Assembly (NCBI GenBank): GCA_963785755.1
Contig: CAWAXG010000002.1
Location: 817,128 to 881,127, forward strand
Direction: 5' to 3'
DNA: 64,000 nucleotides
Origin: an uncultured Acidobacteriota bacterium
GTDB taxonomy: Bacteria > Acidobacteriota > Vicinamibacteria > Vicinamibacterales > 2-12-FULL-66-21
In this document: piece after piece, positions 211-62,060 of the stretch
How positions within the stretch are numbered: the stretch's first letter is position 1
Layout of the letters: every line of letters begins with the position of its first letter
Notes under the pieces: generated by a model
What the model saw: only the letters and a program-made list of their open reading frames with translations
Database searches by the model: none
What the model was told of the DNA's origin: nothing
Translations under genes and position numbers: made by a program

Positions 211-427
211 GGCGCTATCGCAGACGGCACGACGGCACGACGGCACGACGGCACGACGAAAATCGATGCCATAAGTGATTCCTCGTGACTTCGCAATCTC
301 CCGTCCTCCCGTCCTCCTTGTGAAGTGCCCCTGTCCTGGCGCTCGAGAAGCGTCGTCCCAGTGACTTCGTGGCCTTCGTTGCGGCGCGAAGCGCAAAGGC
401 GTCGTAGTCACTTCGTCGTGACGTCGT
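211..427 (-). repeat. Type I intergenic mosaic element, copy 1 (degenerate, with internal insertion)
   Basis: GGCGCTATCGC, then (GACGGCAC)x4.5 at 223-258, a degenerate CTTCGTG-type opposing arm, and GCGGCGCGAAGCGCAA at 381-396. An internal insertion carries (CTCCCGTC)x2.5 at 298-318. The right end overlaps the stop and last codons of CDS 408..1370. Strand is the reading TTGCGCTTCGCGC -> (CACGACGG)n. Confidence 0.75.
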
Positions 428-1370
428 ACACATAGATAGTGGACTTGTCGTCCTCGGGCATGAAATAGCCCCTGAGGCCCGACGCGCTCGGCTCGATCCA
501 TACCGGGTTGTGCATCATGTCCAACCCGGTCGCGGTCCAGAGCAGCACCGGCACCTGGTGTATCGGGCGGCCGTCACGGAGGTCGACGAGATCGAGACCG
601 CCCAGCCTGAACGGGGCCGCGGTCGGACTCTGACGCATCTCCGTGACCCCGGAGCACAACATGCGATGGCTGCCCGCATACTTGCAGTCCTGGTAGTCGA
701 CGTAGTGCGAACGGTTGAGCGTGCGCAGCTTCTCGGGGGCCGTCCCCGCATTCGTCACCTTCCCGCTGCGATCGAGCGTCCACCGGTAGAAACGCCGCGA
801 GCCCCAGCTGACACCGTGCAGCGTGTTGTCATCGGTGTTGCGGGCGACCCCGCCGATCGAATCGGCGAAGCGGAACACTTCCACCGCCTTCATGCTGCCG
901 GGATCGACGCGGTAGAACATCGAGCGGCTGTTCGGCCGGTACTCCGAGACTGGCACCCAGATGTGCGTCCCGTCGAAATCGATCCCGCCGGGGTGATACA
1001 TCGTCCCTTCCCCGAGCGCGAGATCCGCGATCAGCTTTCCGTCCTTGTCGATCTTGAAGAGATGGCCGGCGCCCTCACCCGTGTCGCGATCGTAGCCGCC
1101 GGCAGGCTCCGCAAACCGGCGGGTGCGCACCCTGACCTCGACTGACGACACGAAATACGTGTCGCCGATCTTCACCATGCCCTGCGGGTGATGTGCCGGG
1201 AAGCCCACCGGCACCGACGCGACGAGCTTCCACGGGGATTCGCGGGTCAACTGCATCACTCGATCCGCGACCATCGACCTGGTCCCGGCTGGAGCGGACT
1301 GCAGGACCAGGGCAGCGGCCAGCCCGGCCGCGGATTTCAGCATCAAGTGCAAGGCTCTCCTGCCTTTCAT
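408..1370 (-). CDS. secreted protein of unknown function (signal peptide + ~300-aa globular, possibly beta-propeller-like body)
   Basis: ORF 408..1397. In-frame ATG at 1370 gives [28 protein letters not shown] (signal-peptide-like). Long ORF with ordinary amino-acid composition; I do not recognise the family. Confidence 0.6.
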
Positions 1371-1472
1371 CGGCCCGAACGTCCCACCCGGGCCCACCGT
1401 CTAACCAACCGGTTCTACAAGGAACAAGGGGAGCCCTGTTCCTTCAGGCTGCGTCTTTCAGCAGCCTGCCTA

Positions 1473-1507
1473 GTCCCGAATCCCGAATCCCGAGTCCCGA
1501 GTCCCGA
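1473..1507 (+). repeat. tandem heptamer array (G/A)TCCCGA x5, ending 4 nt before the permease ATG
   Basis: gtcccga atcccga atcccga gtcccga gtcccga read directly. It is the reverse complement of the TCGGGAC/GGGACTC units at 3984-4090. Confidence 0.9.
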
Positions 1508-1511
1508 CGCT

Positions 1512-3983
1512 ATGCGACTACTCCCTACCCGAATTAGCCGTATTCTCCGCCGTTTCCTGCGCGCGCCCGGGTTTACATTCGTGGCCGTGCTCACGCTTGC
1601 GGCCGGGATTGGCGCCAACGCGGCCATTTTCGCGGTCGTTCGTGGCGTGCTCCTCAAGCCGCTGCCCTACCAGGAACCGGAGCGGCTGGTCTCGGTCTGG
1701 CACTCCGCCCCCGGCATGAACGTGCCGATGCTCAACCAGTCGCCCGCCACCTATTTCATCTACAAGGACGAGGGGCGGGTGTTCGAGCACATCGGCATCT
1801 GGAACGACACGGCGGTCACGGTGACCGGCGTCGGCGAGCCGGAGCGAATTGTCGCGATGCAGGTCACACAGGGGGTGCTCGACGCGCTCCGCGTCGAGCC
1901 GCTCATCGGCCGCCGGTTCACGGCTGACGACGATTCGCCGCGAACGCCGCGGCGCGTGATTCTCACGCATGCCTACTGGCAGCAGAAGTTCGGCAGCGAT
2001 TCGATGGTGGTCGGCCGCAACGTGACAATTGACGGCACACCCAGGGAGATCGTCGGCGTGCTGCCAGCCGATTTCCGCTTTCTCGACAGGCAGCTGCAGG
2101 TCGTGCTGCCGCTCCGATTCGACCGCGCGAAGCTCTTCGTCGGCAACTTCAGCTTCCAGGGGATTGCCCGCCTCCGGCCCGGCGTCACGATCGAGCAGGC
2201 GAACGCCGACGTCGCGCGCATGATTCCGCTCGTGATCGAACGGTTCCCGCTGCCCGGCGGCTTCACGAAAAAGATGTTCGAAGAGATCCGGATGGCACCG
2301 AACACCCGTCCTCTCTCGGCTGACGTGATCGGCGACGTCGGCCGCATCCTCTGGGTGCTCCTGGGAACGGTCGGCCTCGTTCTCCTCATCGCCTGTGCGA
2401 ACGTCGCGAATCTGTTTCTCGTTCGCGCGGAGTCACGGCAGCAGGAGCTCGCAATTCACGCCGCGCTCGGCGCCAGCTGGCGGCAGGTCGCGTGGGAGCT
2501 GCTTTCCGAGAGCCTCGCCCTCTCGCTTGCAGGCGGCGCTGCGGGCGTGCTGCTCGCGTATGCGGGTGTCCGCGGGCTCGTCGCGATGGCGCCACAGGGG
2601 CTGCCCCGGCTGGCCGACATCTCGATCGATCCGCTCGTGCTCCTCTTCACCGCAGGGATCTCGCTCCTCGCCGGCCTGCTGTTCGGGTTGATCCCGGTCG
2701 TGAAGTTCGCGACGCCGCACCTGGCCGGAGCGCTGAAGGAAGGCGGCCGCCTGTCGAGCGCCGGGCGGACGCGGCACCGCGCGCGGAATGCCCTGGTGGT
2801 CGCCGAAATCGCGCTCGCCGTCGTGCTGCTCGTCGCCTCGGGCTTGATGATCCGCACGTTCCAGGCCATGCGCCAGGTCCATCCCGGGTTCGCAAGTCCC
2901 GCCGACGTGCTGACCTTCCGGGTCTCGATTCCGTCGTCTCTCGTGTCCGATCCGGAGGCCACGACGCGGATGCATCAGCAGATCGCGGAGCGCCTCGAAC
3001 AGCTTCCCGGCGTGACGTCGGTGGGCGTGACGTCCTCGATCACGATGGACGGATCGAATTCCAACGATCCGATCTTCGTCGAAGATTTTCCGGGACCGGG
3101 CGGACGGATCCCACCGCTCCGCCGGTTCAAATCGATCGGGGCCCGCTACTTCGAGACGATGGGCAATCCGGTGGTGGCGGGACGGGCGCTGACCTGGAAC
3201 GACAGCCTGGAGCGCGCGACGGTCGTGATGGTCAGCGAGAACTTTGCCCGCGAGTTCTGGAAGGAGCCGTCGGCCGCGATCGGCCGCCGCATCAGGCAGA
3301 ACACGACCGATCCGTGGCGCACGATCGTCGGCGTCGCCGCGGATGAACGCGACAACGGTGTCGCCCAAGCTGCGCCGGCAATCGTCTACTGGCCGATGCT
3401 GCTCAAGGACTTCTGGGGCACTCCGCTGGAGGTGCGGCGGGAAATGGCTTATGCGGTGCGAAGCGGCCGTCCGGAGTCGGCGACGCTGCTCGAGGAGATT
3501 CAGCAGGCGGTGTGGTCGGTCAACTCCAATCTGCCCGTCGCCCGCGTCCGCACGCTGACCGAGATCCAATCGCGATCGATGGCCCAGACCTCGTTCGCGC
3601 TCGTCATGCTCGGCATCGCTGCCGCGGTCGCGCTGCTCCTCGGCGTCGTCGGCATCTACGGCGTGATCTCTTACGTCGCCACGCAGCGCACCCGCGAAAT
3701 CGGCATCCGGATGGCGCTCGGCGCCGCCGCCCGCGACGTCGGCAGCCTGTTCCTGCGGCATGGCCTGATCCTCGTCACCATCGGGGTCGTCCTCGGCACG
3801 ATCGCGGCGGCGCTGCTGACGCGAGTGATGAGTACGCTGCTGTTCGGCGTCAGCTCGATGGATCCCGCGACGTACGCCATCGTGGCCATCGGCCTGGCGG
3901 CGACGGCCCTGCTCGCAAGCTACCTGCCGGCGCGCCGCGCCGCCCGCATCGATCCCGCTACGGCGCTTCGGTGGGAGGCTTAG
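1512..3983 (+). CDS. ABC transporter permease, MacB-like / ADOP family (FtsX domains)
   Basis: ORF 1188..3983. In-frame ATG 1512 gives [40 protein letters not shown], the usual N-terminus of this family. Two FtsX-type TM clusters flank a large periplasmic region. C-terminus ...[13 protein letters not shown]. Confidence 0.85.
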
Positions 3984-4225
3984 GATCGGGACTCGGGGGT
4001 CGGGGCTCGGGACTGGGTCGTTCGGGACTCGGGACTCGGGGCTGGGGATCGGGATCGGTGATCGGGGTCGGGGACTCGCGGGTCTGGGTGGTTACGGGTC
4101 GGCTCCCCCGGGACGTGGGACTCCGGTCACAGCCTGCCGCGTCACAGCCTGCGCGCGATCGAAGGCCTGCGCGGAGCGCGAAGGCGGGCGCAGCGCGAAG
4201 GCGCGAAGCGCGAAGGCGGGGTGTC
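3984..4225 (+). repeat. Type II composite intergenic element, copy A
   Basis: Starts directly after the TAG at 3981-3983. About 15 degenerate GGGACTC/NNTCGGG heptamers (3984-4090), then core GGTGGTTACGGGTCGGCTCCCC..GGGACTCCGGTCACAGCCTGCCGCG, then GTCACAGCCTGC x2, then a GCGCGAAGG-type array (~4155-4221). The core aligns with the reverse complement of 38281-38400. Confidence 0.8.
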
Positions 4226-4242
4226 TTGCGCTGTCCGGGGAA

Positions 4243-5511: not shown

Positions 5512-5585
5512 CGAAGGGTGTGTCGAATCAGGGGGTCGCCGACCGACAACTACGTAGTGCGGCAAATCTCGGAGGCAGGTCTACG

Positions 5586-5700
5586 AATTGCGCTTCGCGC
5601 TGCACGACGGCGACGACGGCACGACGTCACAAAGGCCCCGGGTGAAATTTTTCACGTCGTGCCGTCGTGCCGTCGTGCCTTCGTGCGGCGCGATAGCGCC
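5586..5700 (+). repeat. Type I intergenic mosaic element, copy 2 (long near-perfect hairpin)
   Basis: TTGCGCTTCGCGC (5588-5600). Arm CACGACGGCGACGACGGCACGACGT (5603-5627) is complementary to ACGTCGTGCCGTCGTGCCGTCGTG (5654-5677) apart from one bulge. The loop holds an inner palindrome GTGAAA-TT-TTTCAC. Ends with GCGGCGCGATAGCGCC (5685-5700). Confidence 0.85.
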
Positions 5701-5733
5701 TCGTCAGCCGATTCGGACGATTAGAGAAACGTT

Positions 5734-6069: not shown

Positions 6070-6075
6070 TAGACC

Positions 6076-6098
6076 GAGCAGGCGGCTTCCTCCTGCTC
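6076..6098. terminator. hairpin between convergent genes (possible bidirectional terminator)
   Basis: GAGCAGG (6076-6082) / CCTGCTC (6092-6098), 7-bp stem with a 9-nt loop, between stop 6069 (+) and stop 6103 (-). No T-tract. Confidence 0.4.
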
Positions 6099-6102
6099 CT
6101 TG

Positions 6103-7395
6103 CTACTTGCTAAGCGACACGTCCTTCGTCTCGCCGATGGCCAGCAGACCCACGAGCGTGAGCGCAGCGGCGGCTGAAAGGTAGTAGCCGACGTAGTGGA
6201 GCCCGTAGCGCTGCGCGAGCCAGGTCGCGACGTACGGCGCGAGCGACGCACCGAAGATGCCCGCCAGGTTGAACGTCACCGAGCTCCCGGTGTAGCGCAC
6301 TCTGGTCGGAAACAGCTCCGACAATGCGGTCCCCAGGGGTCCATAGGTGAGCCCCATCAACGACAGGCCGATCACCGTCGCCAGGGTCGCACCCGCGAGG
6401 CCCGCCGACAACATCGGACCCATCACGAGTCCGAACACACCGATCGCGATGGTGACCCCGATCAACGTCCGCCGGCGGCCGCGCTCGGCGAGGACGGCGC
6501 TGAGCGGAATCGTCGCCGCGAAGAACACGATCCCGACGAGCTGAATCAGCAGGAACGTCGTCCGGCTGTAGCCGAGTGCCGTCGTGGCCCACGACAGCGC
6601 GAAGACCGTGACGAGATAGAAAAGCACGAACGTCGCCAGCGAGACGAGAATGCCGAGCACCAGCGTTCGCGGGTACTCCCGGAATACCACCAGGATGGGC
6701 ACCTTGGCGCGATCCTCACGGGTGACCGCTTCGCGGAAGACCGGGGTCTCGGTGATCGTCAGCCGGACGTACAGCCCGACGACCACGAGCGCCGCGCTCG
6801 CGAGGAACGGGAACCGCCATCCGTACGCGAAGAACTGATCGTTGGTCAGCCAGCGCGACAGCGCGAGAAACACGGCGCCCGAAAGGAAGAACCCGATCGG
6901 GGCGCCCAGCTGCGGAAACATTCCGTACCATGCGCGTTTCCCGGGCGGCGCGTTCTCCACCGCCAGGAGCACGGCGCCGCCCCACTCGCCGCCAAGTCCA
7001 AGGCCCTGACCGAAACGGCACAGCGCGAGCAGGGCCGGCGCGGCGATGCCGATCGTCTCGTAGGTCGGGAGCAGCCCGATGACCACGGTCGAAAACCCCA
7101 TCGTGAGCAGTGCCGCGACGAGTGTGGTCTTGCGTCCGATGCGATCGCCGAAATGTCCGAACAGCGCCGACCCGATCGGCCGCGCCAGGAACGCGATCGC
7201 GAACGTCGCCAGAGACGCCAGAATGGCCGAGCCCGGATCCGACGCGGGAAAGAACAGCCGCGGAAACACGAGCACCGCCGCCGTCGCATAGATGTAGAAG
7301 TCGAAGAATTCGATCGTCGTCCCGACCAGGCTCGCGAACAGGACCTGCGCAGGAGTGTTGACCCTGTGGCCGGCGGTGGAGTGCGGAGCGGTCAT
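6103..7395 (-). CDS. MFS transporter (metabolite:H+ symporter type)
   Basis: ORF 6103..7461. ATG at 7395 gives MTAPHSTAGHRVNTPAQVLFASLVGTTIEFFDFYIY... MFS loop motif GHFGDRIGRKTTL and about 12 hydrophobic segments. Confidence 0.85.
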   Translation of the reverse strand: MTAPHSTAGHRVNTPAQVLFASLVGTTIEFFDFYIYATAAVLVFPRLFFPASDPGSAILASLATFAIAFLARPIGSALFGHFGDRIGRKTTLVAALLTMGFSTVVIGLLPTYETIGIAAPALLALCRFGQGLGLGGEWGGAVLLAVENAPPGKRAWYGMFPQLGAPIGFFLSGAVFLALSRWLTNDQFFAYGWRFPFLASAALVVVGLYVRLTITETPVFREAVTREDRAKVPILVVFREYPRTLVLGILVSLATFVLFYLVTVFALSWATTALGYSRTTFLLIQLVGIVFFAATIPLSAVLAERGRRRTLIGVTIAIGVFGLVMGPMLSAGLAGATLATVIGLSLMGLTYGPLGTALSELFPTRVRYTGSSVTFNLAGIFGASLAPYVATWLAQRYGLHYVGYYLSAAAALTLVGLLAIGETKDVSLSK

Positions 7396-7519: not shown

Positions 7520-7717
7520 CTACGCCTCATGACTTGGCAGCGGCTCTGGTGGCCGCTCCTTCAAACACTGCCGGCAGAGCGCCTCGGCTCCGCGGATGAC
7601 CAGATGGCGACTGCAGAGCAGGCGATGACAGCGGATGCAGATTCCCCCGTCGAGCTCGTGGAACTCGGAGGAACACTCGGAACAGATGAACGGCACGATC
7701 CGCATGGGCTCACTCAT
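7520..7717 (-). CDS. small Cys/His-rich (zinc-ribbon-like) protein, translationally coupled to the kinase gene
   Basis: 65 codons starting MSEPMRIVPFICSEC... Its ATG (7717-7715) overlaps the TGA of ORF 7714..8448 (ATGA). Ligand pattern C12,C15 / C27,C30,H31 / C35,H38 / C48,C51. Confidence 0.45.
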   Translation of the reverse strand: MSEPMRIVPFICSECSSEFHELDGGICIRCHRLLCSRHLVIRGAEALCRQCLKERPPEPLPSHEA

Positions 7718-10362
7718 TTCAGCGTGGCCATCCAGATATCCGCCTGGCGCGAGCGGCGGAGCAGATACAGGGAACGCCCGTCGTGCGACACCGCGGCGAG
7801 CATGAAATCTTCTCCGGGTCGCGAGAAGATGTCTCGAACGGCGCCCGTCTGCGAGTCTGCGACGGAGAGCACACCCAGCGCCTTGGAGAAGATCATACGG
7901 CGGCTGTCCGGAAGCCAATACGGCTCGTACCTGGCGTCGGACAGTCTCTTGAAAGAACGCGACTCGAGCGAATACGTGACCACCGCGATCGGTTCGTTGC
8001 CTCTGGTTTCGACGCCGGCGAGCTGCCGCCCATCAGGTGCCCACGCCGTCGCACGCCAGACAGCGCCGGGGGGATTCGGCAATCGCTCCGGCGTCTGATC
8101 CTGCCAGGGTTTGCGCGAGTCGAACATCGACACGCCACGCTGCTCGACGACGTCGGTGAACACCATTTTCGAACCGTCAGGCGACCATAGCGGGTAGTGA
8201 GCGCCGCTCTGCCTGGTCAGCTGCGACAGGCCGCTGCCATCCACGTTGATCGTCCAGGCTTCCCAGCCGCCAGCTCGATTCGAATAGAACGCAATCCGCC
8301 GGCCATCCGGCGACCATTTTGGAAAGCGGTCGTTCGCGGCATCATTCGTGAGCTGACGCAGTCCGGTTCCATCCGCTCTTGCGACGAAGATGTCTTCCTG
8401 CGAACGGATTGAGATACAGCACGATCGACTGACCGTCTGGCGCGACATCGACTCCGCCCCAGCCCTGCGAACCGCTCGTCACCCATTGGGGCTCTGGCAG
8501 GACCTTCTCGCTCGCGGGATCCACGGTGAGCCGCTGAACGTTCTGTTCGAACTCGTTGGAGCAGTACGCGATGCGACTACCGTCGGCCGACACGCTGATG
8601 TGACCGACGAACCGGGAGGGCACGGTGAGGGGCTCCGGCTGCCCGAGCGGCCGCCCGGACCCTTCGTCGATCGGGACGCGCCAGAGATTCATGCTGCCGC
8701 CGCGGTTGCTCGCAAAAAAGAGAGACTTGCCGTCAGGCGCCCACACCGGATTCCAGTCCAGCGCCGCATCGTCGGTCACCAGGACCGCATCGCCGCCAGC
8801 CGCGGCTGATAGTGAGGATGTCCCGCTGCCGCTGCGGGCCGCGCGCCGCCCAGAACGCGATGCGCGATCCAGCGGGTGACCAGCTCGGCTGCACCGAGTC
8901 CTCGGTGGCGATCTGCCGCTTCTCCCCGCTGTCGACGTTCACGACCCAGAGCCCGCTGCGGGGACCCCGGCCGGCAGGGTTGAACAGCACGTTCTCGGTT
9001 GCGTAGACGACCTCCTTGCCGCTTGGCGACCATGCCGGGTTGTAGCCGCTGTCCGTCAACCGCCGCACCGACTCGCCCGTGCGCCCCATGACGAAGATGC
9101 CGCCGCCGTCGCGGTTGGACTGGAAGACGATTCGCTCGCCGTCCGGCGAGAAGGCAGGCTGCTGATCGTCGGCCGTCGCGTCCTTCGTCAGATTGATCGC
9201 TGTCTGGCCGCCGACGCTCTGGAGGTAGATGTCCGCGTTGCCCGAGGCGCCGCTCGTGTAGATGATCCACTTGCCGTCCGGCGACAGGCTTGGAAACTCC
9301 TCGGCGCCACTCTGGACCGTGAGCTGCGCGAACGTCGCCGACGTTGGTGCTGACGCTGGACTGCTGAAGCCAGGTCCGAAGCGGTACATCGCGAAGGCAG
9401 CGACAGCTGCGGCCGTCACCGCGGTGGCCGTGACGCCGAGCCACGGGAGACTGCTGCGCTTCGCGGCAGCCGAAGCCGCAATCGGGGCGCCGAGCGCGAG
9501 CTCGCCCGAATCCAGCGACTGCTTCAGCTCCTGAAGATCGTTCCTGATGTCCTTGGCGCTCTGATACCGCTCCTCCGGATCCTTCATCAGGCAGCGTCGG
9601 ATGATTCGCGCCAGATCGCGCGGCAGGGCGTGATTGATCTCCGTCACGTTCTGCGGCGTGTCCTTGAGGATCGATGACAGCACGGAGACGCTCGTGTCGC
9701 CTTTGAACGGCCGCTCTCCGGTCGCCATCTCGTAGCAGCACGATGCCGAGCGAGAAGATGTCGGATCGGTAATCAATCGGCCGCCCTTCCGCCTGTTCGG
9801 GGGACATGTACGCGACCGTCCCGATAATCCGTCCTTCTCCTGTGAGCGACTGGGTCGGAAGAACGGTTGCCGCCGACGACGAGGCCTGCTCTTCCTTCAG
9901 CTTGGCGAGGCCGAAATCCAGCACCTTGAGCCGACCGTCGTCGCCGACCATCACGTTCTGCGGTTTCAGATCGCGGTGGGTGATGCCCCGGTGATGCGCG
10001 GCGCTGACCGCGTCGGTCAGCGGAATCGCCAGCTTGAGCAGACGGTCGAGCGGCAGGCCGCCATGCGGAATCAGCATGGACAGCGGCTTGCCCTCGACGA
10101 TCTCCATCGTCAGGAAGTGCGTGGACCCGGAAAGCTCGACCGAGTAGATGGTGACGATGTTGGGGTGGTTGAGGGCGGCGACGGCCTGCGCCTCGCGCTC
10201 GAAGCGTTGGCGGCGTTCGTCATCCACGCCGAGCGGCGCCGACAGCACCTTGAGCGCGACCTGACGGTGCAGCTTCTGGTCCTCGGCGGCATAGACCTCG
10301 CCCATGCCGCCGCTGCCGAGCTCCCGTACGATGCGGTAATGGCCGAGGGTGGTGCCGATCAT
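7714..10362 (-). pseudogene. Ser/Thr protein kinase - TM - TolB-like beta-propeller protein, reading frame interrupted three times
   Basis: ORF pieces 8776..10488, 8733..9776, 8342..8779 and 7714..8448 read as one protein. Kinase core (GSGGMGEVY, HRDLKPQNVM, DFGLAK, TVAYMSPEQ), a TM-like LPWLGVTATAVTAAAVAAFAMY, then repeated (W)SPDG propeller blades. Frame changes near ~9755, ~8806 and ~8400. Confidence 0.8.
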
Positions 10363-10478
10363 CGGTGGGTGTCGGGATTCTAGCAGGCTGTCGAACAACA
10401 TCCAGCTGATGTTGCGTCCGGCCGAGGCCCCGGACGACAATGCGGCCGTTCGATCGCCAAAGGATCGAGGGGTCCAGC

Positions 10479-12365: not shown

Positions 12366-12430
12366 GTCGGTGCTGAAAACGCGGCAGTGACGGCCCAACT
12401 CCTCCGGCGCACGGGATTCAGGCGCGCTAC

Positions 12431-12556
12431 GGCGAGGCTCGCAGAGCTTCGGCTGCGACCGAGCCGACGAGCGGCGGCGGGCAACTCCAAGGAGCACAGA
12501 ATCCATCGACCGAGAGTGTTTTGGGAGTTGGAAGTTGGAGGTTGGAGGTTGACAGA
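12431..12556 (+). repeat. Type IV intergenic element, copy 1
   Basis: GGCTCGCAGAGCTTCGGCTGCGACCGAGCCGACGAGCGGCGGCGGGCAACTCC ... GTGTTTTGGGAGTTGGAAGTTGGAGGTTGGAGGTTGACAG. It aligns with the reverse complement of 61951-62060. Contains a C(TTCG)G tetraloop hairpin and a CAACTCC/GGGAGTTG inverted pair. Confidence 0.75.
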
Positions 12557-12645
12557 TTCCCTGGACCGTTCGCGTGCGCCCTATCGTGCCTCTTTCTTTG
12601 GATTGGGACTGCCGCCGTGGTCGGCGCCGGTCGCGATCCGCGGTT

Positions 12646-25822: not shown

Positions 25823-25824
25823 GG

Positions 25825-34809: not shown

Positions 34810-34840
34810 AAGCGTCTCTGCCTCCACAGGTGAGAAGGAA

Positions 34841-38240: not shown

Positions 38241-38280
38241 CAATTGGCGTGGTTTTAGCGCTGTACTGGACGGTTGTCAA

Positions 38281-38460
38281 GCGTCCCGCCTACGCGCTGC
38301 GCGCTTCGGCGCGGCAGGCTGCGATCGGAGTCCCCAGTCAGGGGAGCCCCCGAGCCCCGTAACCACCCCTGACCCATGATCCCCGATCCCCGATCTACAA
38401 AACCCGCCCCGAGTCCCGAGTCCCGAGACAAGCCCGAGCCCCCAGTCCCGAGTCCCGTGC
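38281..38460 (-). repeat. Type II composite intergenic element, copy B
   Basis: The reverse complement reads GGGACTCGGGACTGGGGGCTCGGGC...GATCGGGGATCGGGGATC...GGGGTGGTTACGGGGCTCGGGGGCTCCCC..GGGGACTCCGATCGCAGCCTGCCGCGCCGAAGCGCGCAGCGCG, colinear with 3984-4225. It ends 1 nt from stop codon 38462-38464. Confidence 0.8.
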
Positions 38461-38461
38461 C

Positions 38462-43019: not shown

Positions 43020-43523
43020 GGCCTTTCCTCCTGCCCAAGCGGGCTGCGAACGGCGGTGTCGCCGACAATGATCGCCGGGCGCGCGCTACGACCGTCGAGG
43101 CATACGGTGCGGATCATCTATCAAAGAACGGAATCTGGTTGCCGGTCGACAGCCGCGCGCCGCCGCCCATCCTCGACATGCGAGGAAGTATAGAGGGAAA
43201 GTCCCCAGCGGTGTTGTGAGATCCACGGCCGCCGTCGCGGACTTCGTGCCGCCGTTCGAGGGATCCGGAAACGTCTCGGTCGTCCGACGAGCGCAGACCG
43301 CCGACGTTCAGTTGGAACGCTGGTCGCCGTTGGCTCCGCACGGTCGACTATCCGACTTGTCGAAGGTGAATGGCTTGTCGCCAGAGAACGCGCGGTTTGC
43401 CTTCGACTGGCGGACATACGCCGACGTGCCAGAGTGTTTCGCACCACCAAACGCGCGCGTGCTCGCCCGCGCCGAGTCATCAGTCCACCCAGCCCTCGGA
43501 CTGAGAATTCTCCTGCTTGTCTT

Positions 43524-43553
43524 CCTCCCGTCCTCCCGTCCTCCCGTCCTCCC
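43524..43553. repeat. tandem octamer array (CCTCCCGT)x3.5
   Basis: cctcccgt cctcccgt cctcccgt cctccc followed by TGTGAA. The same unit and the same 3' flank (CTCC.TGTGAA) occur at 298-326. The complement is a G3N5G3N5G3N5G3 motif. Confidence 0.85.
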
Positions 43554-43612
43554 TGTGAATACCCCATACGCCATTTCTCAGGCCGAAACGCGCGCACTGG
43601 CGCGGTCCGCAT

Positions 43613-43641: not shown

Positions 43642-43674
43642 CGGCATCGGACCCCGGTCCGAAGGAGTGTGCCT

Positions 43675-46600: not shown

Positions 46601-47162
46601 CAACGCGATGGTCGTCTACGACATGCCGTTCGGCGCGCCGGGCAAACCGGGCAGCGGCAACAGCGTCGTGCGCGCGATCGTGCGGAACTGGCAGATTTCC
46701 GGCATCACGCAGTTTCGATCCGGACGCCCGCTGGGATCGATCGGCGCGACGTGCAACCTGCCGAACGCGGGAACGTGCTACGCGGACTACAACCCGACCT
46801 TCACCGGCCCCGTCCGCATCAACGGCGACTACGGTGACGGCGATGTGCTCGGGACCAACCCCCCGTCCTACATCGATCGCGCGGCGTTCCAGGTGCCAGC
46901 TGCGTTCACCTACGGCAATACGCCGCGAACGCTCGCGCACGACCTCCGGAATCCGAACTACTTCAACCAGGACCTCAGCATCCGGCGCGACTTCCCCATG
47001 TCGCGGCTGAAGCTCGGACTTGGCATAGACGTGTTCAACCTGTTCAACACCGTGGTGTTCGGCGGAATCCAGACGAACATCACGAATGCAGCCTTCGGGC
47101 GGGTCAGCTCGCAGGCGAATACGCCACGCGTCGGACAGATCAAGGTGAGGCTCGATTTCTAA
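43675..47162 (+). CDS. TonB-dependent receptor with CarboxypepD_reg-like N-domain (one frame change)
   Basis: 43669..45282 joins 44919..47162 after a frame change near ~44900. Signal peptide, GSIQGTVLDTSKAALPGVTVTAT, and barrel end ...PRVGQIKVRLDF. Confidence 0.8.
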
Positions 47163-50080: not shown

Positions 50081-50105
50081 ATTGGGAGTCCTCCTGACCT
50101 CCGCT

Positions 50106-50295
50106 CACCCGTGGGATAAGAATTCCGAGCATCTCCAGAACCCGGCCGACGACGGCGCTGCCGCGCTGCACGACGGCACGACGGCACGATGTAGAGGTTT
50201 TCAACAGATCCTTCGTGAACTTCGTGACGTCGTGCCGTCGTGCGGCGCGAAGCGCAACTCGTATTTTCTGGGCAGTTGGGAGTTTTCACTGCTGG
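50106..50295 (-). repeat. Type I intergenic mosaic element, copy 4
   Basis: Colinear with 25636-25822. Arms GCACGACGGCACGACGGCACGA (50168-50189) and TCGTGACGTCGTGCCGTCGTGC (50222-50243) are complementary except at two positions. GCGGCGCGAAGCGCAACTCGTATTTTCTGGGCAGTTGGGAG tail. Confidence 0.85.
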
Positions 50296-50303
50296 GATTT
50301 CTG

Positions 50304-57733: not shown

Positions 57734-57762
57734 ATTATGGGCGCTGACGCTCATCGGTTCAA
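57734..57762 (-). promoter_or_regulatory. candidate promoter of the FAD/Fe-S oxidase gene (short leader)
   Basis: The minus strand reads TTGAAC (57762-57757), a 17-nt spacer, then CATAAT (57739-57734). The ATG at 57721 is only ~12 nt after the -10. The -35 is the outermost repeat unit of the palindrome. Confidence 0.35.
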
Positions 57763-57931
57763 GGGTTCAGGGGTTCAAGGGTTCAGGGGTTCGGGTTCAA
57801 GGGTTCAGAGGTTCAGGAGGTTCAGCGAGCCGTTCGAAGATTCGAAGAATTCAGCCGCTCGCTGAACCTCCGAACCTCTGAACTCTTGAACCCGAACCTC
57901 TGAACCCTCTGAACCCTTGAACTCTTGAACC
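57756..57931. repeat. ~175-bp near-perfect palindrome built from GGTTCA(A/G)G units
   Basis: Left arm 57756-57830 (ggttcaa gggttcag gggttcaa gggttcag gggttcg ggttcaa gggttcag aggttcag gaggttcag cgagc). Centre CGTTCGAAGATTCGAAGAATTCAGCC. Right arm 57857-57931 is its reverse complement apart from a few substitutions and 1-nt indels. Confidence 0.9.
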
Positions 57932-57945
57932 GACGAGCGTAAGTT
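57917..57945 (+). promoter_or_regulatory. candidate promoter of the class V aminotransferase gene (short leader)
   Basis: TTGAAC (57917-57922), a 17-nt spacer, then TAAGTT (57940-57945); ATG at 57956. Mirror image of the arrangement on the other side of the palindrome. Confidence 0.35.
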
Positions 57946-57955
57946 ACGATCGTGC

Positions 57956-59209
57956 ATGCCGAGCGGCCGCCACTTCCTCCAGATTCCTGGTCCGACCAAC
58001 ACCCCCGACCGCGTGCTGCGCGCGCTGGCGCAGCCGACGATCGATCATCGCAGCGCCGAGTTCGCGGCGCTCGGGCGTGAGGTGCTCGCCGGCATCAAGC
58101 GGATCTTCCAGACTTCGGCGCCGGTGGTGATCTTCCCCGCCTCCGGCAGCGGCGCATGGGAGGCGGCCCTCGTCAACACCCTGTCGCCGGGCGATCGGGT
58201 CCTGGCCTTCGACATCGGAGAATTCGCCAGGGGCTGGACGGATGTGGCGCGCAGGCTCGGGCTCGACGTCGAAGTGACGCCCGGAGACTGGCGGCACGGC
58301 GTCGATCCGGCGGCGCTCGAAACGAGGCTCGGCGAAGATCGCGAGCATCGCATTCGAGCGGTGCTCGTCGTTCACAACGAAACGTCCACCGGAGTGACGA
58401 GCCGACTGCCGGAGATTCGAAAGGCCATCGACCGCGCCGGCCATCCGGCGCTGCTGCTCGTCGATGCGGTGTCGTCGCTCGGGTCCATCGAGCTCCGCCA
58501 CGACGACTGGGGGCTCGACGTGACGCTGTGCGGATCGCAGAAGGGGCTGATGCTGCCGCCGGGCCTCGGCTTCACCGCGCTCAGCGAGCGGGCGCTGACG
58601 GCGTCACGGTCCGCCCGCCTGCCGCGGTCGTATTTCGCGTGGGAGCAGATGCTGCCCGCCAACGCGAACGGTTTCTTTCCGTACACGCCAGCCACCAACC
58701 TGCTGTTCGGGCTGCGCGAAGCCCTCGCGATGCTGGAAGAGGAGGGCCTCGATCACGTCTTCGCGCGTCATCGCCGGCTCGCCGAAGCCGCACGGGCTGC
58801 CGTCCACGCCTGGGGCCTCGACATCGCCTGTCAGCGTGAGGACGAGTACAGCCCGTCAGTGACGGCCGTCATGATGCCTGACGGGTATGATGCCGATCGA
58901 CTTCGCTCGACCATCCTCGAACGGCTCAACATGTCGCTCGGCGCCGGCCTCGGCCGATTCAAGGGGACGGCGTTCCGGATCGGCCATCTCGGCGACTTCA
59001 ACGAGCTGATGTTGATGGGCACGCTCTGTGGCGTCGAGATGGGGCTCGCCCTCGCCGGCATCCCGTCGTCGCCTGGCGGTGTAGATGCGGCGATGAAGGT
59101 GCTCGTCGCTACGTGCTACGTGCCACGTGCTACGTGCCACGTGCTCTTCGTGCTACGTGCTACGTGCTACGTGCTCACGTGCTCGTGCGACGTGCTCAGC
59201 TGCACGTGA
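57956..59209 (+). CDS. class V aminotransferase (serine-glyoxylate / alanine-glyoxylate type)
   Basis: 417 aa. ...LCGSQKGLMLPPGLGF (PLP-lysine motif). The last 33 aa (ATCYVPRATCHVLFVLRATCYVLTCSCDVLSCT) are a translation of the ACGTGCT repeat. Confidence 0.85.
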   Translation: MPSGRHFLQIPGPTNTPDRVLRALAQPTIDHRSAEFAALGREVLAGIKRIFQTSAPVVIFPASGSGAWEAALVNTLSPGDRVLAFDIGEFARGWTDVARRLGLDVEVTPGDWRHGVDPAALETRLGEDREHRIRAVLVVHNETSTGVTSRLPEIRKAIDRAGHPALLLVDAVSSLGSIELRHDDWGLDVTLCGSQKGLMLPPGLGFTALSERALTASRSARLPRSYFAWEQMLPANANGFFPYTPATNLLFGLREALAMLEEEGLDHVFARHRRLAEAARAAVHAWGLDIACQREDEYSPSVTAVMMPDGYDADRLRSTILERLNMSLGAGLGRFKGTAFRIGHLGDFNELMLMGTLCGVEMGLALAGIPSSPGGVDAAMKVLVATCYVPRATCHVLFVLRATCYVLTCSCDVLSCT

Positions 59210-59278
59210 GCACGTGAGCACGTAGGACGTAGCACGAAAAGCACGTGAGGACGTAGCGCGTTGCACGTAGCACGTGGC
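59105..59278. repeat. ~175-bp imperfect palindrome built from ACGTGCT-type heptamers, centred on CAGCTG
   Basis: gctacgt gctacgt gccacgt gctacgt gccacgt gctcttc gtgctacgt... up to CAGCTG at ~59197-59202, then the complementary series (cacgtgag cacgtgag cacgtagg acgtagc...). At least six CACGTG hexamers. Lies between convergent genes. Confidence 0.9.
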
Positions 59279-60062: not shown

Positions 60063-60089
60063 GGTGAACGACCTCGCAGGGAGAGAGAC

Positions 60090-61280
60090 ATGAGCTCGAG
60101 CCGGACGGCGCTCGAAGGGATTCGCGTGCTGGACGTCACACAGGTGATGGCCGGCCCGTTCTGCGCGATGCAACTATGCGATATGGGCGCGGACGTGATC
60201 AAGGTGGAGCCGCCCGGCGGCGACTCGACGCGCCGCATGGTCGGCAGCACCGGCCAGGACAGCGCCGGATTCAACGCCGTCAATCGCGGCAAGCGCGGCA
60301 TCGTCCTCGATCTCGCGACGACGCGCGGTCAGGACGCGTTCCGGCGGCTTCTCTCCCGCACCGACATCCTGATCGAAAACTACCGGCCCGGCGTGATGCG
60401 CCGATTCGGCCTGGACTATGAAACCCTGGCCGCGCGCCATCCATCGCTGATCTATGCCTCGATTTCGGGGTCCGGCCAGACCGGCCCCGAGGCATCGAAG
60501 GGCGGATTCGATCTGATCGCGCAGGGTGAGTCAGGACTGATGTCGGTCACCGGAGAAGCCGGCGGTCCTCCGATCAAGATTGGCGTTCCGGTTACCGACC
60601 TCGGCGCCGCGATGTTCGCGCTCGCGGCAATCCTCGCGGCCCTTCATTACCGCACGCGAACCGGCATCGGCCAGCACATCGACACATCGCTGCTCGAAGC
60701 CGGGATCGCGTTCTCGGTCTGGGAGTCGGCCGAGTACTTTTCCGAGGGGAAACCGCCGGCGCCTCTCGGATCGGCGCATCGAATGCTCGCGCCCTACCAG
60801 GCCATCCGCTGTGCCGACGGCTACATCACCCTGGGAGCAGGCACCGATCGGTTGTTTCAACGCCTGTGTGAGGTCCTCGGGCATCCGGAGTGGACGGCGG
60901 ATCCGGATTTTGCCAACGACACCCTTCGAGTCCGGAATCGTGCCCCTCTCATCGAGCGAATCGAGCAGATCACGATCGGGGAACCCTGCGATCGCTGGCT
61001 CGCGCAGCTCTCCGCCGCGGGCGTGCCCTGCGGCCGCATCAACAGCTACGCGGACACCTTCGCCGATCCGCAGGTCCGCGCCCGGGGAATGATCGTCGAT
61101 GTCGACCACCCGACGCTCGGGCGGCTGCGAACGCTCGGCTCGCCGATCAAGATGTCCGAGACACCGCCGACAGTGGGACGGCGTGCGCCGCTGCTCGGCG
61201 AGCACACCGCAGAGGTCTTGAGGGAAGCCGGCTGCGACGAGAGCGAGATCGCCGCGATCGTGGCCGACGCCGTCATTTGA
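60090..61280 (+). CDS. family III CoA-transferase (CaiB/BaiF type)
   Basis: ORF 59856..61280. ATG 60090 gives MSSSRTALEGIRVLDVTQVMAGPFCAMQLCDMGADVIKVEPPGGD. Confidence 0.9.
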   Translation: MSSSRTALEGIRVLDVTQVMAGPFCAMQLCDMGADVIKVEPPGGDSTRRMVGSTGQDSAGFNAVNRGKRGIVLDLATTRGQDAFRRLLSRTDILIENYRPGVMRRFGLDYETLAARHPSLIYASISGSGQTGPEASKGGFDLIAQGESGLMSVTGEAGGPPIKIGVPVTDLGAAMFALAAILAALHYRTRTGIGQHIDTSLLEAGIAFSVWESAEYFSEGKPPAPLGSAHRMLAPYQAIRCADGYITLGAGTDRLFQRLCEVLGHPEWTADPDFANDTLRVRNRAPLIERIEQITIGEPCDRWLAQLSAAGVPCGRINSYADTFADPQVRARGMIVDVDHPTLGRLRTLGSPIKMSETPPTVGRRAPLLGEHTAEVLREAGCDESEIAAIVADAVI

Positions 61281-61818
61281 GAACGATCCGTTCGCTCACC
61301 CTGCCGTCTGCAATCGGCCGCACCGAGAACGCGGGATTACGCCGCATCTCGGCCGTCACGAACGGGTCGCCTTCGAACACGATCTCGAAGACCTTCGCTG
61401 CCCGGCCAGGCGCCGACACCTCGAAGTGGATGTGCGCCGGCGCGCGGCTGTTCGGATAGGAGCCCGGCTTGACCGTCTCGAACGACCAGTTGCCTTTCGC
61501 GTCCGATCGAAGGAACAGCTTGAGTCGCGGATTCCGATTGTCACTCGCCGGCTTGACGCCGTAATAACCCTCGTGGTCCGTCTGATAGATGTAGAGCGAC
61601 GCGCCACTGATGGGCGCGTTGTCCGCACCGACCACGACTCCACTCACGGTCACCCGCTCACCAGCCTCGCCCTGCGGCGCGACGCGTCCGGTCGACGGTG
61701 CTGACGCGGGCGCCTCGTGAATCGACTGCGCGGCGGCGGCAACCGCGGCGGATACGACGAACAGCGCGAGTGCAATGCGGAACCGCTGAGGATCCGTCGC
61801 AGAGAATGACTGGCGCAT
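61273..61818 (-). CDS. secreted intradiol-dioxygenase-like protein
   Basis: ORF 61273..61830; ATG 61818. Signal-like N-terminus, then ...HEGYYGVKP... and ...RAPAHIHFEV... as in the protocatechuate-dioxygenase-like fold. 8-nt convergent overlap with 60090..61280. Confidence 0.65.
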   Translation of the reverse strand: MRQSFSATDPQRFRIALALFVVSAAVAAAAQSIHEAPASAPSTGRVAPQGEAGERVTVSGVVVGADNAPISGASLYIYQTDHEGYYGVKPASDNRNPRLKLFLRSDAKGNWSFETVKPGSYPNSRAPAHIHFEVSAPGRAAKVFEIVFEGDPFVTAEMRRNPAFSVRPIADGRVSERIVLK

Positions 61819-61950
61819 CAGGCCCTCCATCCCCGCATGGTCTCATGGCTGGTGGGTGTTCGCTCGGTACCGGACTTGTTTTGCAGGGACAAGACGGGGG
61901 ATGAATGCTTCGGCGCCTTCAGGCAAGGAGGGTGCAAGAACACGCCACGG

Positions 61951-62060
61951 CGAAAACTCCCAACTTCCAACCACCAACTCCCAAGGCGCCCACAGCGATC
62001 GACCAAGGCGCGAGTTGCCCGCCGCCGCTCGGAACGGTCGCAGGCGACCTCTGGCGAGCC
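61951..62060 (-). repeat. Type IV intergenic element, copy 2
   Basis: The reverse complement reads GGCTCGCCAGAGGTCGCCTGCGACCGTTCCGAGCGGCGGCGGGCAACTCGCGCC...CCTTGGGAGTTGGTGGTTGGAAGTTGGGAGTTTTCG, colinear with 12431-12556. Confidence 0.75.

Follow-up and report, generated by a model that had tools for sequence, protein, structure and literature searches.

Modular, hairpin-prone repeats resembling REP/BIME elements in the intergenic spacers of a soil Vicinamibacterales bacterium

Analysis of a 64-kb stretch of DNA (hereafter, the window) from a soil bacterium of the Vicinamibacterales (Acidobacteriota) supports the presence of a system of modular, nesting, hairpin-prone and strictly extragenic repeats, which behave much like REP/BIME. 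In appearance, these elements are akin to REP/BIME/MITE-type repeats, of which they would be an undescribed relative, and do not resemble the strictly transcription-polar RNA system proposed in the first-pass annotation. The explanation that we favour, with about an even chance of being correct, is that they are foldback/REP-like elements that move, nest and are prone to slippage; they would be tolerated nowhere but between genes and would probably exert terminator or ribosome-binding-site side effects. Several families of small non-coding hairpin elements, mobile or at least copy-and-paste and with a fast turnover, would thus have colonised the spacers. They would be of two kinds: (a) foldback elements, with arms made of mirror-image arrays of a family-specific 7–8-nt unit (GCACGACG, GGGACTC/GGGGATC, CAACTCC with the termini GTCAAC...GTTGAC, GGTTCAG, ACGTGCT or GCCAGTA), and (b) compact structured elements, namely, the ~103-nt Type III and the REP-like GTAG-tagged hairpin representing the Type IV core.

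Intergenic arrays and dispersed elements

The repeats first described in the larger spacers are real, and their coordinates and units were recovered by TRF (arrays at 223–258, 298–317, 1474–1507, 3986–4078, 5602–5686, 12521–12551, 25704–25818, 27614–27641, 38378–38457, 43523–43553, 50168–50243, 57756–57931, 59099–59275 and 61955–61984). Among the arrays of period 7–8 with at least 2.5 copies in the window, 21 out of 22 are intergenic, for an intergenic fraction of 10.1% (binomial p = 2.5e-20), an enrichment far beyond chance; the tandem arrays found inside genes have periods divisible by 3. An inverted partner is located within 400 nt of 76 arrays, and eight have only a direct partner. Self-BLAST of the window matched the copies of Types I, II and IV, as well as two large palindromes of about 180–200 bp (initially estimated at ~175 bp). 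The modules said to be common to several types were also retrieved: GCGCGAAGCGC is present in Types I and II (at 384, 4201, 25771 and 50245, and reverse-complemented at 5590), and the CTCCCGTC array of the first Type I copy recurs at 43533 (298–324 vs 43533–43559, 96% identity in self-BLAST). As for the tail attributed to both Types I and IV, GGAGTTG is indeed shared, but it is antisense in Type I and sense in Type IV.

With regard to Type I, copy I-1 (205–430, minus strand) starts at the DUF6454 stop codon and harbours a (CGTCGTGC)4.5 arm, the CTCCCGTC array, a GCGCTTCGCGC mini-hairpin and CACGAAG-type units; in strain L002, a Type IV-like element takes its place. I-2 (5575–5712, plus) is a near-perfect foldback of ~120 nt, (GCACGACG)n-loop-(CGTCGTGC)n, capped off by GCGCTTCGCGC / GCGCGATAGCGC mini-hairpins, and strain L004 carries at this site a different hairpin with TCACAAAG units. 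I-3 (25624–25824, minus), whose (CAACYTC)n tail is located at the stop codon, has, besides a foldback of GCACGACG/CACGAAG units, a 3' part of its own as well as an SD-like GGTGAGGAGAGG, and its spacer has other content in L007. I-4 (50095–50300, minus) has the same architecture as I-3. In self-BLAST, I-3 and I-4 share 84% identity over 190 nt, unique sequence included, I-2 matches both, and I-1 shares 90% with I-2 over 49 nt.

Copy II-1 (3984–4242, plus) starts with a G-rich (GGGACTC/GGGGATC)n array from the stop codon onward, followed by a unique core and GCGAAGG/GCGAAGC repeats, with other unit numbers in L001 and L002. II-2 (38275–38461, minus), 75% identical to II-1 over 170 nt and inverted in window coordinates (self-BLAST), starts after the beta-lactamase stop codon and ends at a TTGACA-17-TAAAAC promoter-like site; its L007 counterpart is palindromic throughout, (GGGACTC)n...(GAGTCCC)n. 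Three arrays stand free. A direct (TCCCGAA)4.9 array (1474–1507, plus), one unit shorter in L001 and L002, ends 4 nt upstream of a permease gene start codon, with no SD visible in between. The (GGGACTC)n array at 27614–27670 (plus) adjoins a GGGGACAGGCA hairpin; its sense strand is C-rich, an orientation opposite to that of Type II, and L007 has GGGGATC units in its stead. Finally, a (TCCTCCCG)3.9 array (43523–43553), with the same unit as 298–324, lies upstream of a TonB-dependent receptor gene.

In copy IV-1 (12366–12560, plus), a REP-like core (CTAC plus the GGCGAGGCTCGC hairpin, and GAGCGGCGGCGGGC) lies between a short CAACTCC arm and a (GGAGTTG)n arm terminating in GTTGAC; in L001, GGGACT/GGATC arrays are found instead. 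IV-2 (61945–62137, minus) shares 73% identity with IV-1 over 112 nt (self-BLAST), and its counterpart in L114 is devoid of the 58-nt core, the CAACTCC/GGAGTTG arms matching perfectly. CAACTCC-armed elements occupy at least seven sites. Palindrome P1 (57744–57943), in a divergent spacer, is made of mirror-image GGTTCA(A/G)G unit arrays, with irregular units in identical order on both sides; at this site, L114, with 99.6% identical flanks, has a (CAACTCC)n...(GGAGTTG)n hairpin instead. Palindrome P2 (59099–59278), composed of ACGTGCT units, is situated between the convergent aminotransferase (plus) and enoyl-CoA hydratase (minus) genes, the aminotransferase ORF extending into it, and in L114 its arms have gained and lost units independently. 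Arm identity in the palindromes (57744–57943 and 59108–59278) is 85% by self-BLAST. Also between convergent genes, the element at 6070–6112 is a short hairpin with CTTGCTA repeats. Every strain has another hairpin in this spacer, among them (GCCAGTA)n...(TACTGGC)n with 2–3 units in L002 and 5 in L004, and L003 displays there a canonical terminator, GGGGGTCGGATCGACCCCCCTTTT.

The Type III family

The two Type III copies gave no match in self-BLAST of the window, but both were recovered by a profile (32818–32919, score 76; 33851–33936, score 23). III-A (32814–32937, minus), a member of a structured ~103-nt family, is flanked by a 14-bp direct repeat, AATGAAACCGAGCA, so that the earlier statement that target duplications are lacking is wrong for at least this copy. 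Its 3' end, GGAGAGAAATG, comprises the SD and the start codon of the next gene, and the site is empty in L007, with an ATGA stop/start overlap. III-B (33847–33960, minus) is diverged and missing in L007; in L006, which has one extra Type III copy, the III-B locus spans 279 nt with a Type IV-like core nested inside. The core is inverted there, as in many metagenome copies.

The family counts at least 120 loci in soil metagenomes, shows no match to Rfam, and has sharp ends and conservation above 90%. Its core measures 102–105 nt with no mod-3 constraint, tandem arrays reach up to 4 copies, and a REP-like core with the GTAG tag is nested in metagenomic copies. In the stem, 99.2% of cells are paired, and double-change cells number 52 vs 16.6 in shuffles (0 out of 500 shuffles as high); 12 G-U pairs vs 0 A-C pairs indicate that one defined strand folds. 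Flanking duplications of 14–31 nt are restricted to a minority of copies, most having none above control, and being few and variable, they fit a replication/recombination-based insertion better than a classical cut-and-paste enzyme. In 55 of 115 copies, the end lies 0–44 nt (mode 6–7 nt) upstream of the start codon of a gene on the same strand and carries an SD-like GGWGAGA, and 35 of the 115 adjoin an opposite-strand stop codon, the hairpin end being 3–6 nt away. Such precise distances hint at target specificity or function, beyond a selfish-element model. Type III resembles the mycobacterial interspersed repetitive units (MIRU), which are also ~100-nt, intercistronic, orientation-biased and arranged in short head-to-tail arrays; however, the small ORFs with overlapping stop/start that define MIRU are not conserved, and polarity is only 34:20 (sense to antisense) where the flanking genes are co-directional, among 124 metagenomic copies. 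Pneumococcal BOX elements, for their part, are comparable to the repeats of the window in being modular and in having internal subunits of variable number.

Turnover between strains and comparison with known systems

Presence/absence polymorphism between strains, a check proposed at the outset, was found: strains with 97–100% identical flanks have in the same spacer another element, none (empty sites), or changed arm unit numbers. At 10384–10439, insertions are longer by 138 nt in L003 and 74 nt in L002, and whole-element replacement occurred at 57744–57943, ~12.4 kb, ~0.2 kb and ~5.6 kb. Besides the Type III loci, copies outside the window include the unit families GGTTCAG, GCACGT, CAACTCC and GCACGACG, which recur in other species at unrelated loci (GGTTCAG palindrome in L117, GCACGT arrays in L116, and an AGGGTTC palindrome in L115), and AACTCCC and AACCCTG units, which recur across 500 kb of metagenome contigs. 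These comparisons show that elements are copied into new spacers, nest in one another's loops, hence the mosaic appearance, form short tandem arrays, and are deleted or replaced, and that arms lengthen or shorten through unit slippage.

We consider it unlikely that purely local mutation, in which replication slippage and quasi-palindrome template switching build tandem-armed hairpins de novo without mobility, accounts for the data. Unit-number polymorphism in both arms, the stepwise arm growth at the 6070 spacer (L002 vs L004) and the (GCACGACG)n arrays of many unrelated high-GC phyla are as expected from it, and the long tail of unit types seen only once suggests that some arrays may arise locally. 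Yet, dispersed copies have in common 100–190 nt of non-repetitive sequence (the 190 nt of I-3/I-4 with its unique part, II-1/II-2 and the Type IV cores), which argues for copying and not local slippage alone, and the same unit families and GTCAAC...GTTGAC termini are present at many unrelated loci, in other species too. Together with the clean insertions facing empty sites in sister strains, and at least 120 near-identical Type III copies, the dispersed unique sequence largely refutes local mutation as the sole process. An artefact of sequencing or assembly in long-read metagenome bins, suggested by frameshifts in the window relative to sister strains and by contig names typical of long-read assemblies, has a negligible probability and is refuted by the occurrence of the same elements in assemblies that different projects produced independently and with different technologies (ENA long-read contigs, the ENA farmland scaffold L004, the k141_-prefixed contig L005, and the JGI contigs L003 and L114).

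To our knowledge, no REP family has been described in this phylum (Acidobacteriota, order Vicinamibacterales). The REP/BIME/REPIN elements of Proteobacteria are mobilised by RAYT tyrosine-HUH transposases, and for other Acidobacteria only TIR-flanked RAYT-like genes are listed (PMC3733652). Like REP/BIME/REPIN, the present elements are extragenic, GC-rich and palindromic, often in inverted pairs folding into a larger hairpin; they form mosaic clusters, contribute strongly to the differences in spacers from strain to strain, and lie mostly downstream of genes, most copies without an adjoining transposase. GTAG beside the hairpin of the Type IV core is a further REP-like trait (PMC3733652, PMC3116915). 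In contrast to the single 20–40-nt palindrome of REP, arms here are unit arrays of up to ~90 nt, many unit families coexist, and no RAYT was seen in the window and fragments. Long inverted termini of short tandem repeats, with repeat numbers varying between arms, are likewise known from Foldback transposons (Drosophila FB, Galileo, Tetris; PMC4079207, PMC3573991), but these are eukaryotic and kilobase-scale, with known or suspected transposases, and the likeness does not go beyond structure. Short heptamer repeats preceding start codons, such as Beggiatoaceae TAACTGA and the cyanobacterial STRR (PMC4679880), are paralleled by direct arrays a few nt before a start with no obvious SD (1474–1507; L116 20972–21017), although units differ, the lineage is high-GC, and most arrays here are hairpin-paired at 3' ends.

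The same architecture is known from Geobacter metallireducens, where paired tandem hepta-/octanucleotides were catalogued only, as 'global regulator binding sites' of classes 1–3 read as IHF/HU sites (Aklujkar et al. 2009, PMC2700814). There too, runs of 3–5 units of 7–8 nt form pairs, one on each strand and separated by a varying distance; they are intergenic (e.g., the proB/proA gap) and species-specific, a sister species having another sequence in the same spacer, and the unit TCTCCGTS resembles CTCCCGTC; the phylum is another one, and strain-level turnover, nesting and structure are analysed only here. By analogy, the units could be iterated DNA sites for a nucleoid-associated or global regulator (IHF/HU-type or other), which we regard as improbable. 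Different species have conserved unit sequences at loci that are not orthologous, and some arrays occupy promoter regions, P1 containing a TTGAAC-17-CATAAT match. However, orthologous promoters lack positional conservation, one strain may have units unrelated to those of another at the same place, gene 3' ends hold most copies, the G-U asymmetry and the covariation suggest that a single strand folds, and no candidate protein was found.

Orientation, folding and a possible RNA-level role

The strict polarity initially claimed holds for the ten copies of the window, all of which follow gene direction, but amounts to a bias only, given the antisense copies outside it. Orientation of the ten flips together with the local gene strand, which suggests a correlation with transcription and not with replication, and in seven, as first reported, our count from the sequence places the upstream stop codon within about 5 nt of the start. 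Whole spacers fold better than shuffles only for P1 (z = -18), P2 (z = -16), I-2 (z = -4.2/-5.0), I-4 (z = -5.4) and III-A, and at 6070 and 27.6 kb; Types II, IV and I-1 remain at the level of composition-matched shuffles. The sense strand folds better in 9 out of 11 elements downstream of a same-strand gene, and canonical terminators show no excess over shuffle expectation in this genome sequence.

These features would also fit host-selected RNA elements, i.e., factor-independent ('I-shaped') terminators, 3'-end stabilisers or intercistronic attenuators, with Type III as a cis-regulatory or processing RNA before start codons and polarity reflecting function. The hairpin always present in the convergent 6070–6102 spacer, with a canonical terminator in one strain, the covariation of Type III with G-U pairs on the given strand only, and its position before start codons speak for this reading, which we nevertheless hold to be unlikely. 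Type III is antisense in 20 of 54 co-directional copies and often abuts opposite-strand stop codons; Type IV exists in both orientations, a sister strain having it antisense between two minus-strand genes, as do the GGGACTC and CAACTCC units. Divergent, promoter-side spacers are also occupied (57744–57943 and 1474–1507), the 43523 array is likewise in a 5' region, and not all types exceed shuffles in structure. Moreover, absent or different elements in orthologous spacers of near-identical strains are hard to reconcile with a needed function. The elements may have an RNA-level role; mobile elements filtered by selection fit the data at least as well.

How such mobile elements would spread can be proposed. 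No transposase is encoded in the window, as noted at first reading, and the ~64 kb of genome plus fragments yielded neither a transposase or RAYT nor a parent IS; the inconsistent target duplication among Type III copies also counts against this explanation. Mobilisation might occur in trans, by an enzyme encoded elsewhere and recognising one folded strand, an HUH/RAYT-like single-strand transposase being the obvious candidate, and inverted duplication or hairpin-templated copying could keep or restore arm symmetry. Insertions harming genes would be removed by selection, so that survivors would fill spacers from the stop codon to the next promoter or start codon, and the orientation giving the mRNA a stable 3' hairpin, or providing an SD-like 3' end as in Type III and Type I-3/4, may be favoured, resulting in the orientation bias. 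Effects on termination, mRNA stability and translation would then probably represent by-products, some of them perhaps exapted.

Placement and architecture of the repeats

The window (66% G+C) encodes MacB/FtsX "ADOP" permeases, OMP_b-brl_4 TonB-type receptors, an ECF sigma factor with DUF6596, and DUF6454 and DUF3500 proteins, a gene set typical of soil Acidobacteriota, and permease homologues sharing about 71% identity carry the NCBI label Vicinamibacterales. No tRNAs are present in it. With genes called from codon-position G+C and from the gene calls of related contigs, 10.1% of the window is intergenic; this fraction holds 21 of the 22 non-overlapping arrays of period 7 or 8 with at least 2.5 copies (binomial p = 2.5e-20), and the arrays found within genes have periods of 6, 9, 12 or 15. 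The extragenic placement claimed in the first-pass annotation is thereby borne out, the arrays not being equally common in coding DNA. Every array it listed was recovered by TRF, and its description proved accurate overall for a feature that is real and striking, with at least 14 elements in 64 kb. Compared with sister strains, frameshifts were noticed in an RraA-like gene, two TonB-type receptor genes and a Ser/Thr kinase gene (regions 33960-33990, 33850-33870, 34841-38100, 43669-47162 and 7714-10383), reflecting either sequencing indels of the long-read assembly or real pseudogenes; they also explain why ORFs 57956-59209 and 33871-34827 extend into repeats.

Self-BLAST confirmed that the elements form dispersed families, copied between loci: Types I-3 and I-4 share 84% identity over 190 nt, I-2 matches both, I-1 and I-2 share arms, and the two copies of Type II and of Type IV share 75% over 170 nt and 73% over 112 nt, respectively. 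The CTCCCGTC array is present twice, and the arms of the two palindromes, P1 (GGTTCAG unit, 57744-57943, divergent spacer) and P2 (ACGTGCT unit, 59099-59278, convergent genes), are 85% identical. Both Type III copies (III-A and III-B), too divergent for BLAST, were found by profile. Unit arrays of these families include (CAACTCC)n, (GCACGACG)n and (GGTTCAG)n. The modules shared between types, GCGCGAAGCGC and the GGAGTTG tail, were found where they had been reported, but the tail is antisense to genes in Type I and sense in Type IV.

In the whole body of sequence analysed, an inverted array of the same unit lies within 400 nt of 76 arrays, and 8 have a direct partner only, which shows that the hairpin layout is not due to chance; in P1, the arms are even mirror-ordered. 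When whole spacers were folded and compared with composition-matched shuffles, z reached -18 for P1, -16 for P2, -4 to -5 for I-2, -5 for I-4, and -3 for each of III-A, the 6070 spacer and the 27.6-kb spacer. Only these spacers stand out; Types II, IV and I-1 fold no better than shuffles. On the sense strand, Type II arrays form runs of 10-17 G3-5 tracts 3-4 nt apart (GGGACTCGGGACTCGGGGCTGGGGATCGGG...) directly 3' of stop codons (window 3984-4110; window 38360-38460, minus strand; 16630-16740 in the sister-strain contig L001), and their sequence would qualify as a textbook G-quadruplex motif. In two hairpins, namely, the mini-hairpin GCGC-GAA-GCGC (384, 4201, 25771, 50245 and, reverse-complemented, 5590) and the Type III hairpin GGGGGAC-GAA-GTCCCCC (32822-32842), a C-G pair closes a GAA triloop, as in the d(GCGAAGC) mini-hairpin, a DNA structure of exceptional stability; these triloops may hint at folding as single-stranded DNA.

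Sites resembling canonical intrinsic terminators numbered 10, 6 and 8 versus 10.1, 9.8 and 11.0 in shuffles, none of them at the main hairpins and with a canonical terminator only in the L003 allele of the 6070 spacer, and a sigma-70 promoter scan revealed no enrichment, so that no strong 3' structures besides the hairpins are left. Suggestive promoter matches are limited to TTGAAC-17-CATAAT at the edge of P1, whose outermost unit supplies the -35 box, and TTGACA-18-AATCAT beside Type I-1. A promoter-like TTGACA-17-TAAAAC site (window 38244-38283, minus strand), conserved in sister strains L006 and L007, starts exactly at the end of a variable Type II element, and the repeats respect this downstream promoter. 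Direct heptamer arrays, (TCCCGAA)n at window 1474-1511 and (TTCCGAT)n at 20972-21019 of L116, a contig of another species, end 2-4 nt before start codons and lack an SD sequence.

Turnover among sister strains

The same region was found by exact-protein look-ups in sister strains from three sequencing projects (L001-L007 and L114), with genes 94-99.6% identical to those of the window. Nearly every repeat-bearing spacer varies among strains whose flanking genes are 97-100% identical, and presence/absence polymorphism, a check proposed with the first-pass annotation, is among the differences found. Both Type III copies are missing from L007, where the upstream stop and downstream start codons overlap as ATGA at the III-A site and lie 12 nt apart at the III-B site; III-A is a clean 124-bp insertion between 14-bp direct repeats (AATGAAACCGAGCA). 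A third Type III copy occupies the 5' leader of a TonB receptor gene in L006. At 10384-10439, (CAACTCC)n...(GGAGTTG)n hairpins are present in L003 and L002, and absent from the window and L001.

Elements are also exchanged for one another. In L114, despite 99.6% identity over 4.5 kb of flank, a CAACTCC-armed hairpin stands in place of P1; L001 has GGGACT/GGATC arrays where the window has Type IV-1, L002 a Type IV-like element where it has Type I-1, and L004 a different hairpin where it has Type I-2. Nesting occurs in L006, where an inverted Type IV-like core lies inside III-B, while IV-2 in L114 has no core and its perfectly complementary arms abut. Further, arrays slip by units: the left arm of P2 is longer by three units in the window, and its right arm by about seven in L114, and the 1474 array and Type II arrays vary between strains by whole units. 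In the convergent spacer 6070-6102, L002 and L004 carry (GCCAGTA)n...(TACTGGC)n, with 2-3 and 5 units, respectively, and L003 has a textbook terminator in its place. In L006, inverted GGGACTC-type elements (2878-3125 and 4080-4158) bracket a class A beta-lactamase gene, the upstream one including the reverse complement of the last ~30 nt and stop codon of a beta-lactamase gene, which suggests repeat-mediated recombination or duplication.

The Type III family and the question of polarity

Type III is a large structured family, abundant and covarying. Its invariant hairpin, CCGGGGGACGAAGTCCCCCGG, was found at no fewer than 120 metagenome loci, so that copies exist outside the window, and had no matches in viral contigs; the Type III profile revealed no copies in named Vicinamibacterales genome fragments or in L115-L117, the loci of other species. 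The 49 aligned copies share a core of ~103 nt with sharp ends, consisting of GCGAGCGAGCGCAGCGAGCGAGCCACGCGAGCGGAGCGGGGCAnGGGGnCCCCGCGAGCGAGCGTGTAAGGGGGT and the hairpin. In the consensus structure, derived from 42 of them and in which the third helix is invariant by construction, 99.2% of cells are paired, and double-change cells number 52 versus 16.6 in shuffles (0/500), slid controls collapsing. Wobble pairs comprise 12 G-U and 0 A-C, so the folding strand is the one with the GAA loop, and structure is constrained on one strand. A GGCGAGGTCTCGCC-GTAG module related to the Type IV core is nested within the first hairpin of many copies.

Among 115 evaluable copies, the hairpin ends 0-44 nt (mode 6-7 nt) 5' of a same-strand start codon in 55, with an SD-like GGWGAGA before it, and 1-25 nt (mode 3-6 nt) 3' of the stop codon of an opposite-strand gene in 35. 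In three metagenome loci (L120, L143 and L151), its 3' side abuts apparent opposite-strand tRNA or tmRNA 3' ends (TGGTGCGCCC..., TGGAGGCGGCGGGAGTCGAACCC...). Head-to-tail arrays with ~103-nt spacing contain four copies in L131, three in L121 and two each in L138, L185 and L186, and head-to-head pairs also occur. Of 63 copies, 8 are flanked by long direct repeats (14, 14, 15 and 31 nt) that often take in the start codon downstream, versus 2% in controls, most copies being at control level; a 14-bp target duplication was therefore rejected as a general trait, since it concerns a minority only. III-A contains a 42-codon ORF with ATGA overlaps, but core lengths are spread over the three mod-3 classes (26/22/15), so this small ORF is incidental and a MIRU-like coupled small ORF is ruled out.

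With regard to orientation, the ten Type I-IV copies in the window all match the local gene strand, and since this strand flips within a single 64-kb stretch, the correlate is transcription and not replication. The first-pass annotation had deduced a strictly polar system acting at the RNA level. That reading is only partly right. The concordance in the window stands, but its strictness does not: with relatives included, about 8 placements are concordant and 2 discordant, some elements lie in divergent spacers, and Type III copies with genes called on both sides are found as >E> (34), <E< (20), <E> (9) and >E< (7). Of 11 elements downstream of a same-strand gene, 9 fold better on the sense strand, largely a composition effect for the G-rich Type II, and Type III and Type I-3/4 have an SD-like 3' end only when read in the sense orientation. 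Orientation is thus biased rather than strictly polar, and selection on tolerated insertions can explain it.

Distribution, relatives and significance

A scan of genome collections with (GACGGCAC)2.5 matched more than 106 contigs from many high-GC phyla, many of them in Streptomyces spacers, and did not bring back the window's own genome; matches being too unspecific, this unit alone was rejected as a family marker. In Vicinamibacterales, Gemmatimonadales and Planctomycetes, GACGGCAC arrays often form a hairpin with a degenerate inverted arm, and the 8-kb fragments around them hold many further inverted pairs of period-7/8 arrays, the unit differing from pair to pair. In contigs L008-L113 (e.g. 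L015, L028, L036 and L076), (GGCACGAC)n arrays reaching 14 copies were noticed in the spacers of Streptomyces, Acidimicrobiales and Rubricoccaceae, and even in those of a low-GC Bacteroidales bin, often adjoining other 7-8-nt arrays; intergenic minisatellites of short period may thus be widespread among soil bacteria. L115-L117, chosen by protein only, carry the unit families of the window at unrelated loci, namely, an AGGGTTC palindrome in L115, (GCACGTC/GCACGTA)n arrays in L116, and a (GGTTCAG)n...(CTGAACC)n palindrome directly 3' of a stop codon in L117, indicating that these families were inherited or spread rather than arising anew each time. A metagenome scan returned no match to the Type I mini-hairpin/array junction, though the JGI contig L003 (sample 3300086363), taken from a different assembly collection, has the pattern. 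Heptamer arrays of the GGAGTTG and GGTTGGGG types were found in 23 IMG/VR viral contigs (L238-L260), but being mostly GGTTGGGG-like repeats, they are uninformative as evidence; in L248, L249 and L255 they directly adjoin gene starts, and L249 has a short inverted partner.

None of the known systems fits fully. REP/BIME/REPIN elements come closest in behaviour, and the paired hepta/octanucleotide sites of Geobacter metallireducens in architecture. Like REP/REPIN, the present elements are extragenic, numerous and arranged as inverted hairpin doublets. A REP palindrome is imperfect, measures 20-40 nt and bears at one end a conserved unpaired GTAG or CGTC tag, which the tandem-armed hairpins (Types I and II, P1 and P2) lack. 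The nested GGCGAGGTCTCGCC-GTAG module of Type III may be a REP-like signature (PMC3733652): for it and the Type IV core, GGCGAGG(N)CTCGCC was followed by GTAG in 9 of 40 pattern matches, a total that takes in both palindrome strands and chance in-gene matches. The Geobacter sites share 3-5 tandem 7-8-nt units, opposite-strand pairing, intergenic location and multiple copies, and are a "family" in a descriptive sense only (PMC2700814). As in MITEs, the CAACTCC family has terminal inverted repeats, GTCAAC(C/T)TCC...GGA(G/A)GTTGAC, at seven or more sites, but a fixed-length target duplication is wanting, with none clear at the L003 insertion and 14-31 nt in a minority of Type III copies. Pfam detected no transposase-like domain in the 40 larger ORFs of the window, and the ~1.5 Mb of sequence analysed contained no inverted array pair around a transposase-like ORF of the kind an autonomous element would have. 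MIRU, BOX and TAACTGA repeats have single traits in common with our elements: Type III shares the intercistronic head-to-tail arrays of MIRU, but neither a coupled small ORF, given the absence of mod-3 constraint, nor strict polarity (34 sense, 20 antisense), and the TAACTGA repeats of Beggiatoaceae resemble the start-codon heptamer arrays at window 1474-1511 and L116 20972-21019. Eukaryotic Foldback elements are a structural analogue. At E<=1, Rfam returned nothing at Types I-IV and only sub-threshold miRNA-model matches to P1, and we found no description of such elements in Acidobacteria in the literature, in agreement with the initial failure to recognise a named family. The elements are best classed among extragenic palindromic/MITE-like repeats, as a new form marked by an unusual foldback design of tandem units and by one structured family that is abundant and covarying.

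As to mechanism, we propose that the elements are mobilised in trans by an enzyme recognising a folded single strand, that arm symmetry is kept by hairpin-templated copying or inverted duplication, and that selection would be the source of the position and orientation bias, terminator or SD effects being side effects. A more ambitious reading, which we hold to be rather unlikely, is that Vicinamibacterales, and probably Gemmatimonadales and Planctomycetes, harbour an undescribed prokaryotic class of foldback hairpins, with arms made of mirror arrays of 7-8-nt units specific to each family, which would serve as mobile gene-boundary cassettes (terminator, insulator, ribosome-binding site) swapped wholesale between strains. 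Type III would then be a new abundant structured RNA or ssDNA element, set 6-7 nt from start or 3-6 nt from stop codons by a dedicated machinery for its mobilisation or processing.

Few groups of soil bacteria are as abundant as the Acidobacteriota, yet, to our knowledge, almost nothing has been established about their non-coding DNA. The elements constitute the main sequence difference between strains otherwise 97-100% identical, and therefore represent ready-made strain-typing markers and a hazard for metagenome assembly and binning. Type III, given its covarying stems and its at least 120 metagenome copies, makes a clean candidate family of new structured elements, and in the tandem-unit foldbacks the joint growth of palindromes and minisatellites can be studied in bacteria. 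Since the elements lie precisely where genes meet, and the genome has no recognisable canonical terminators, they could, through their gain, loss or resizing, retune operon read-through and translation.
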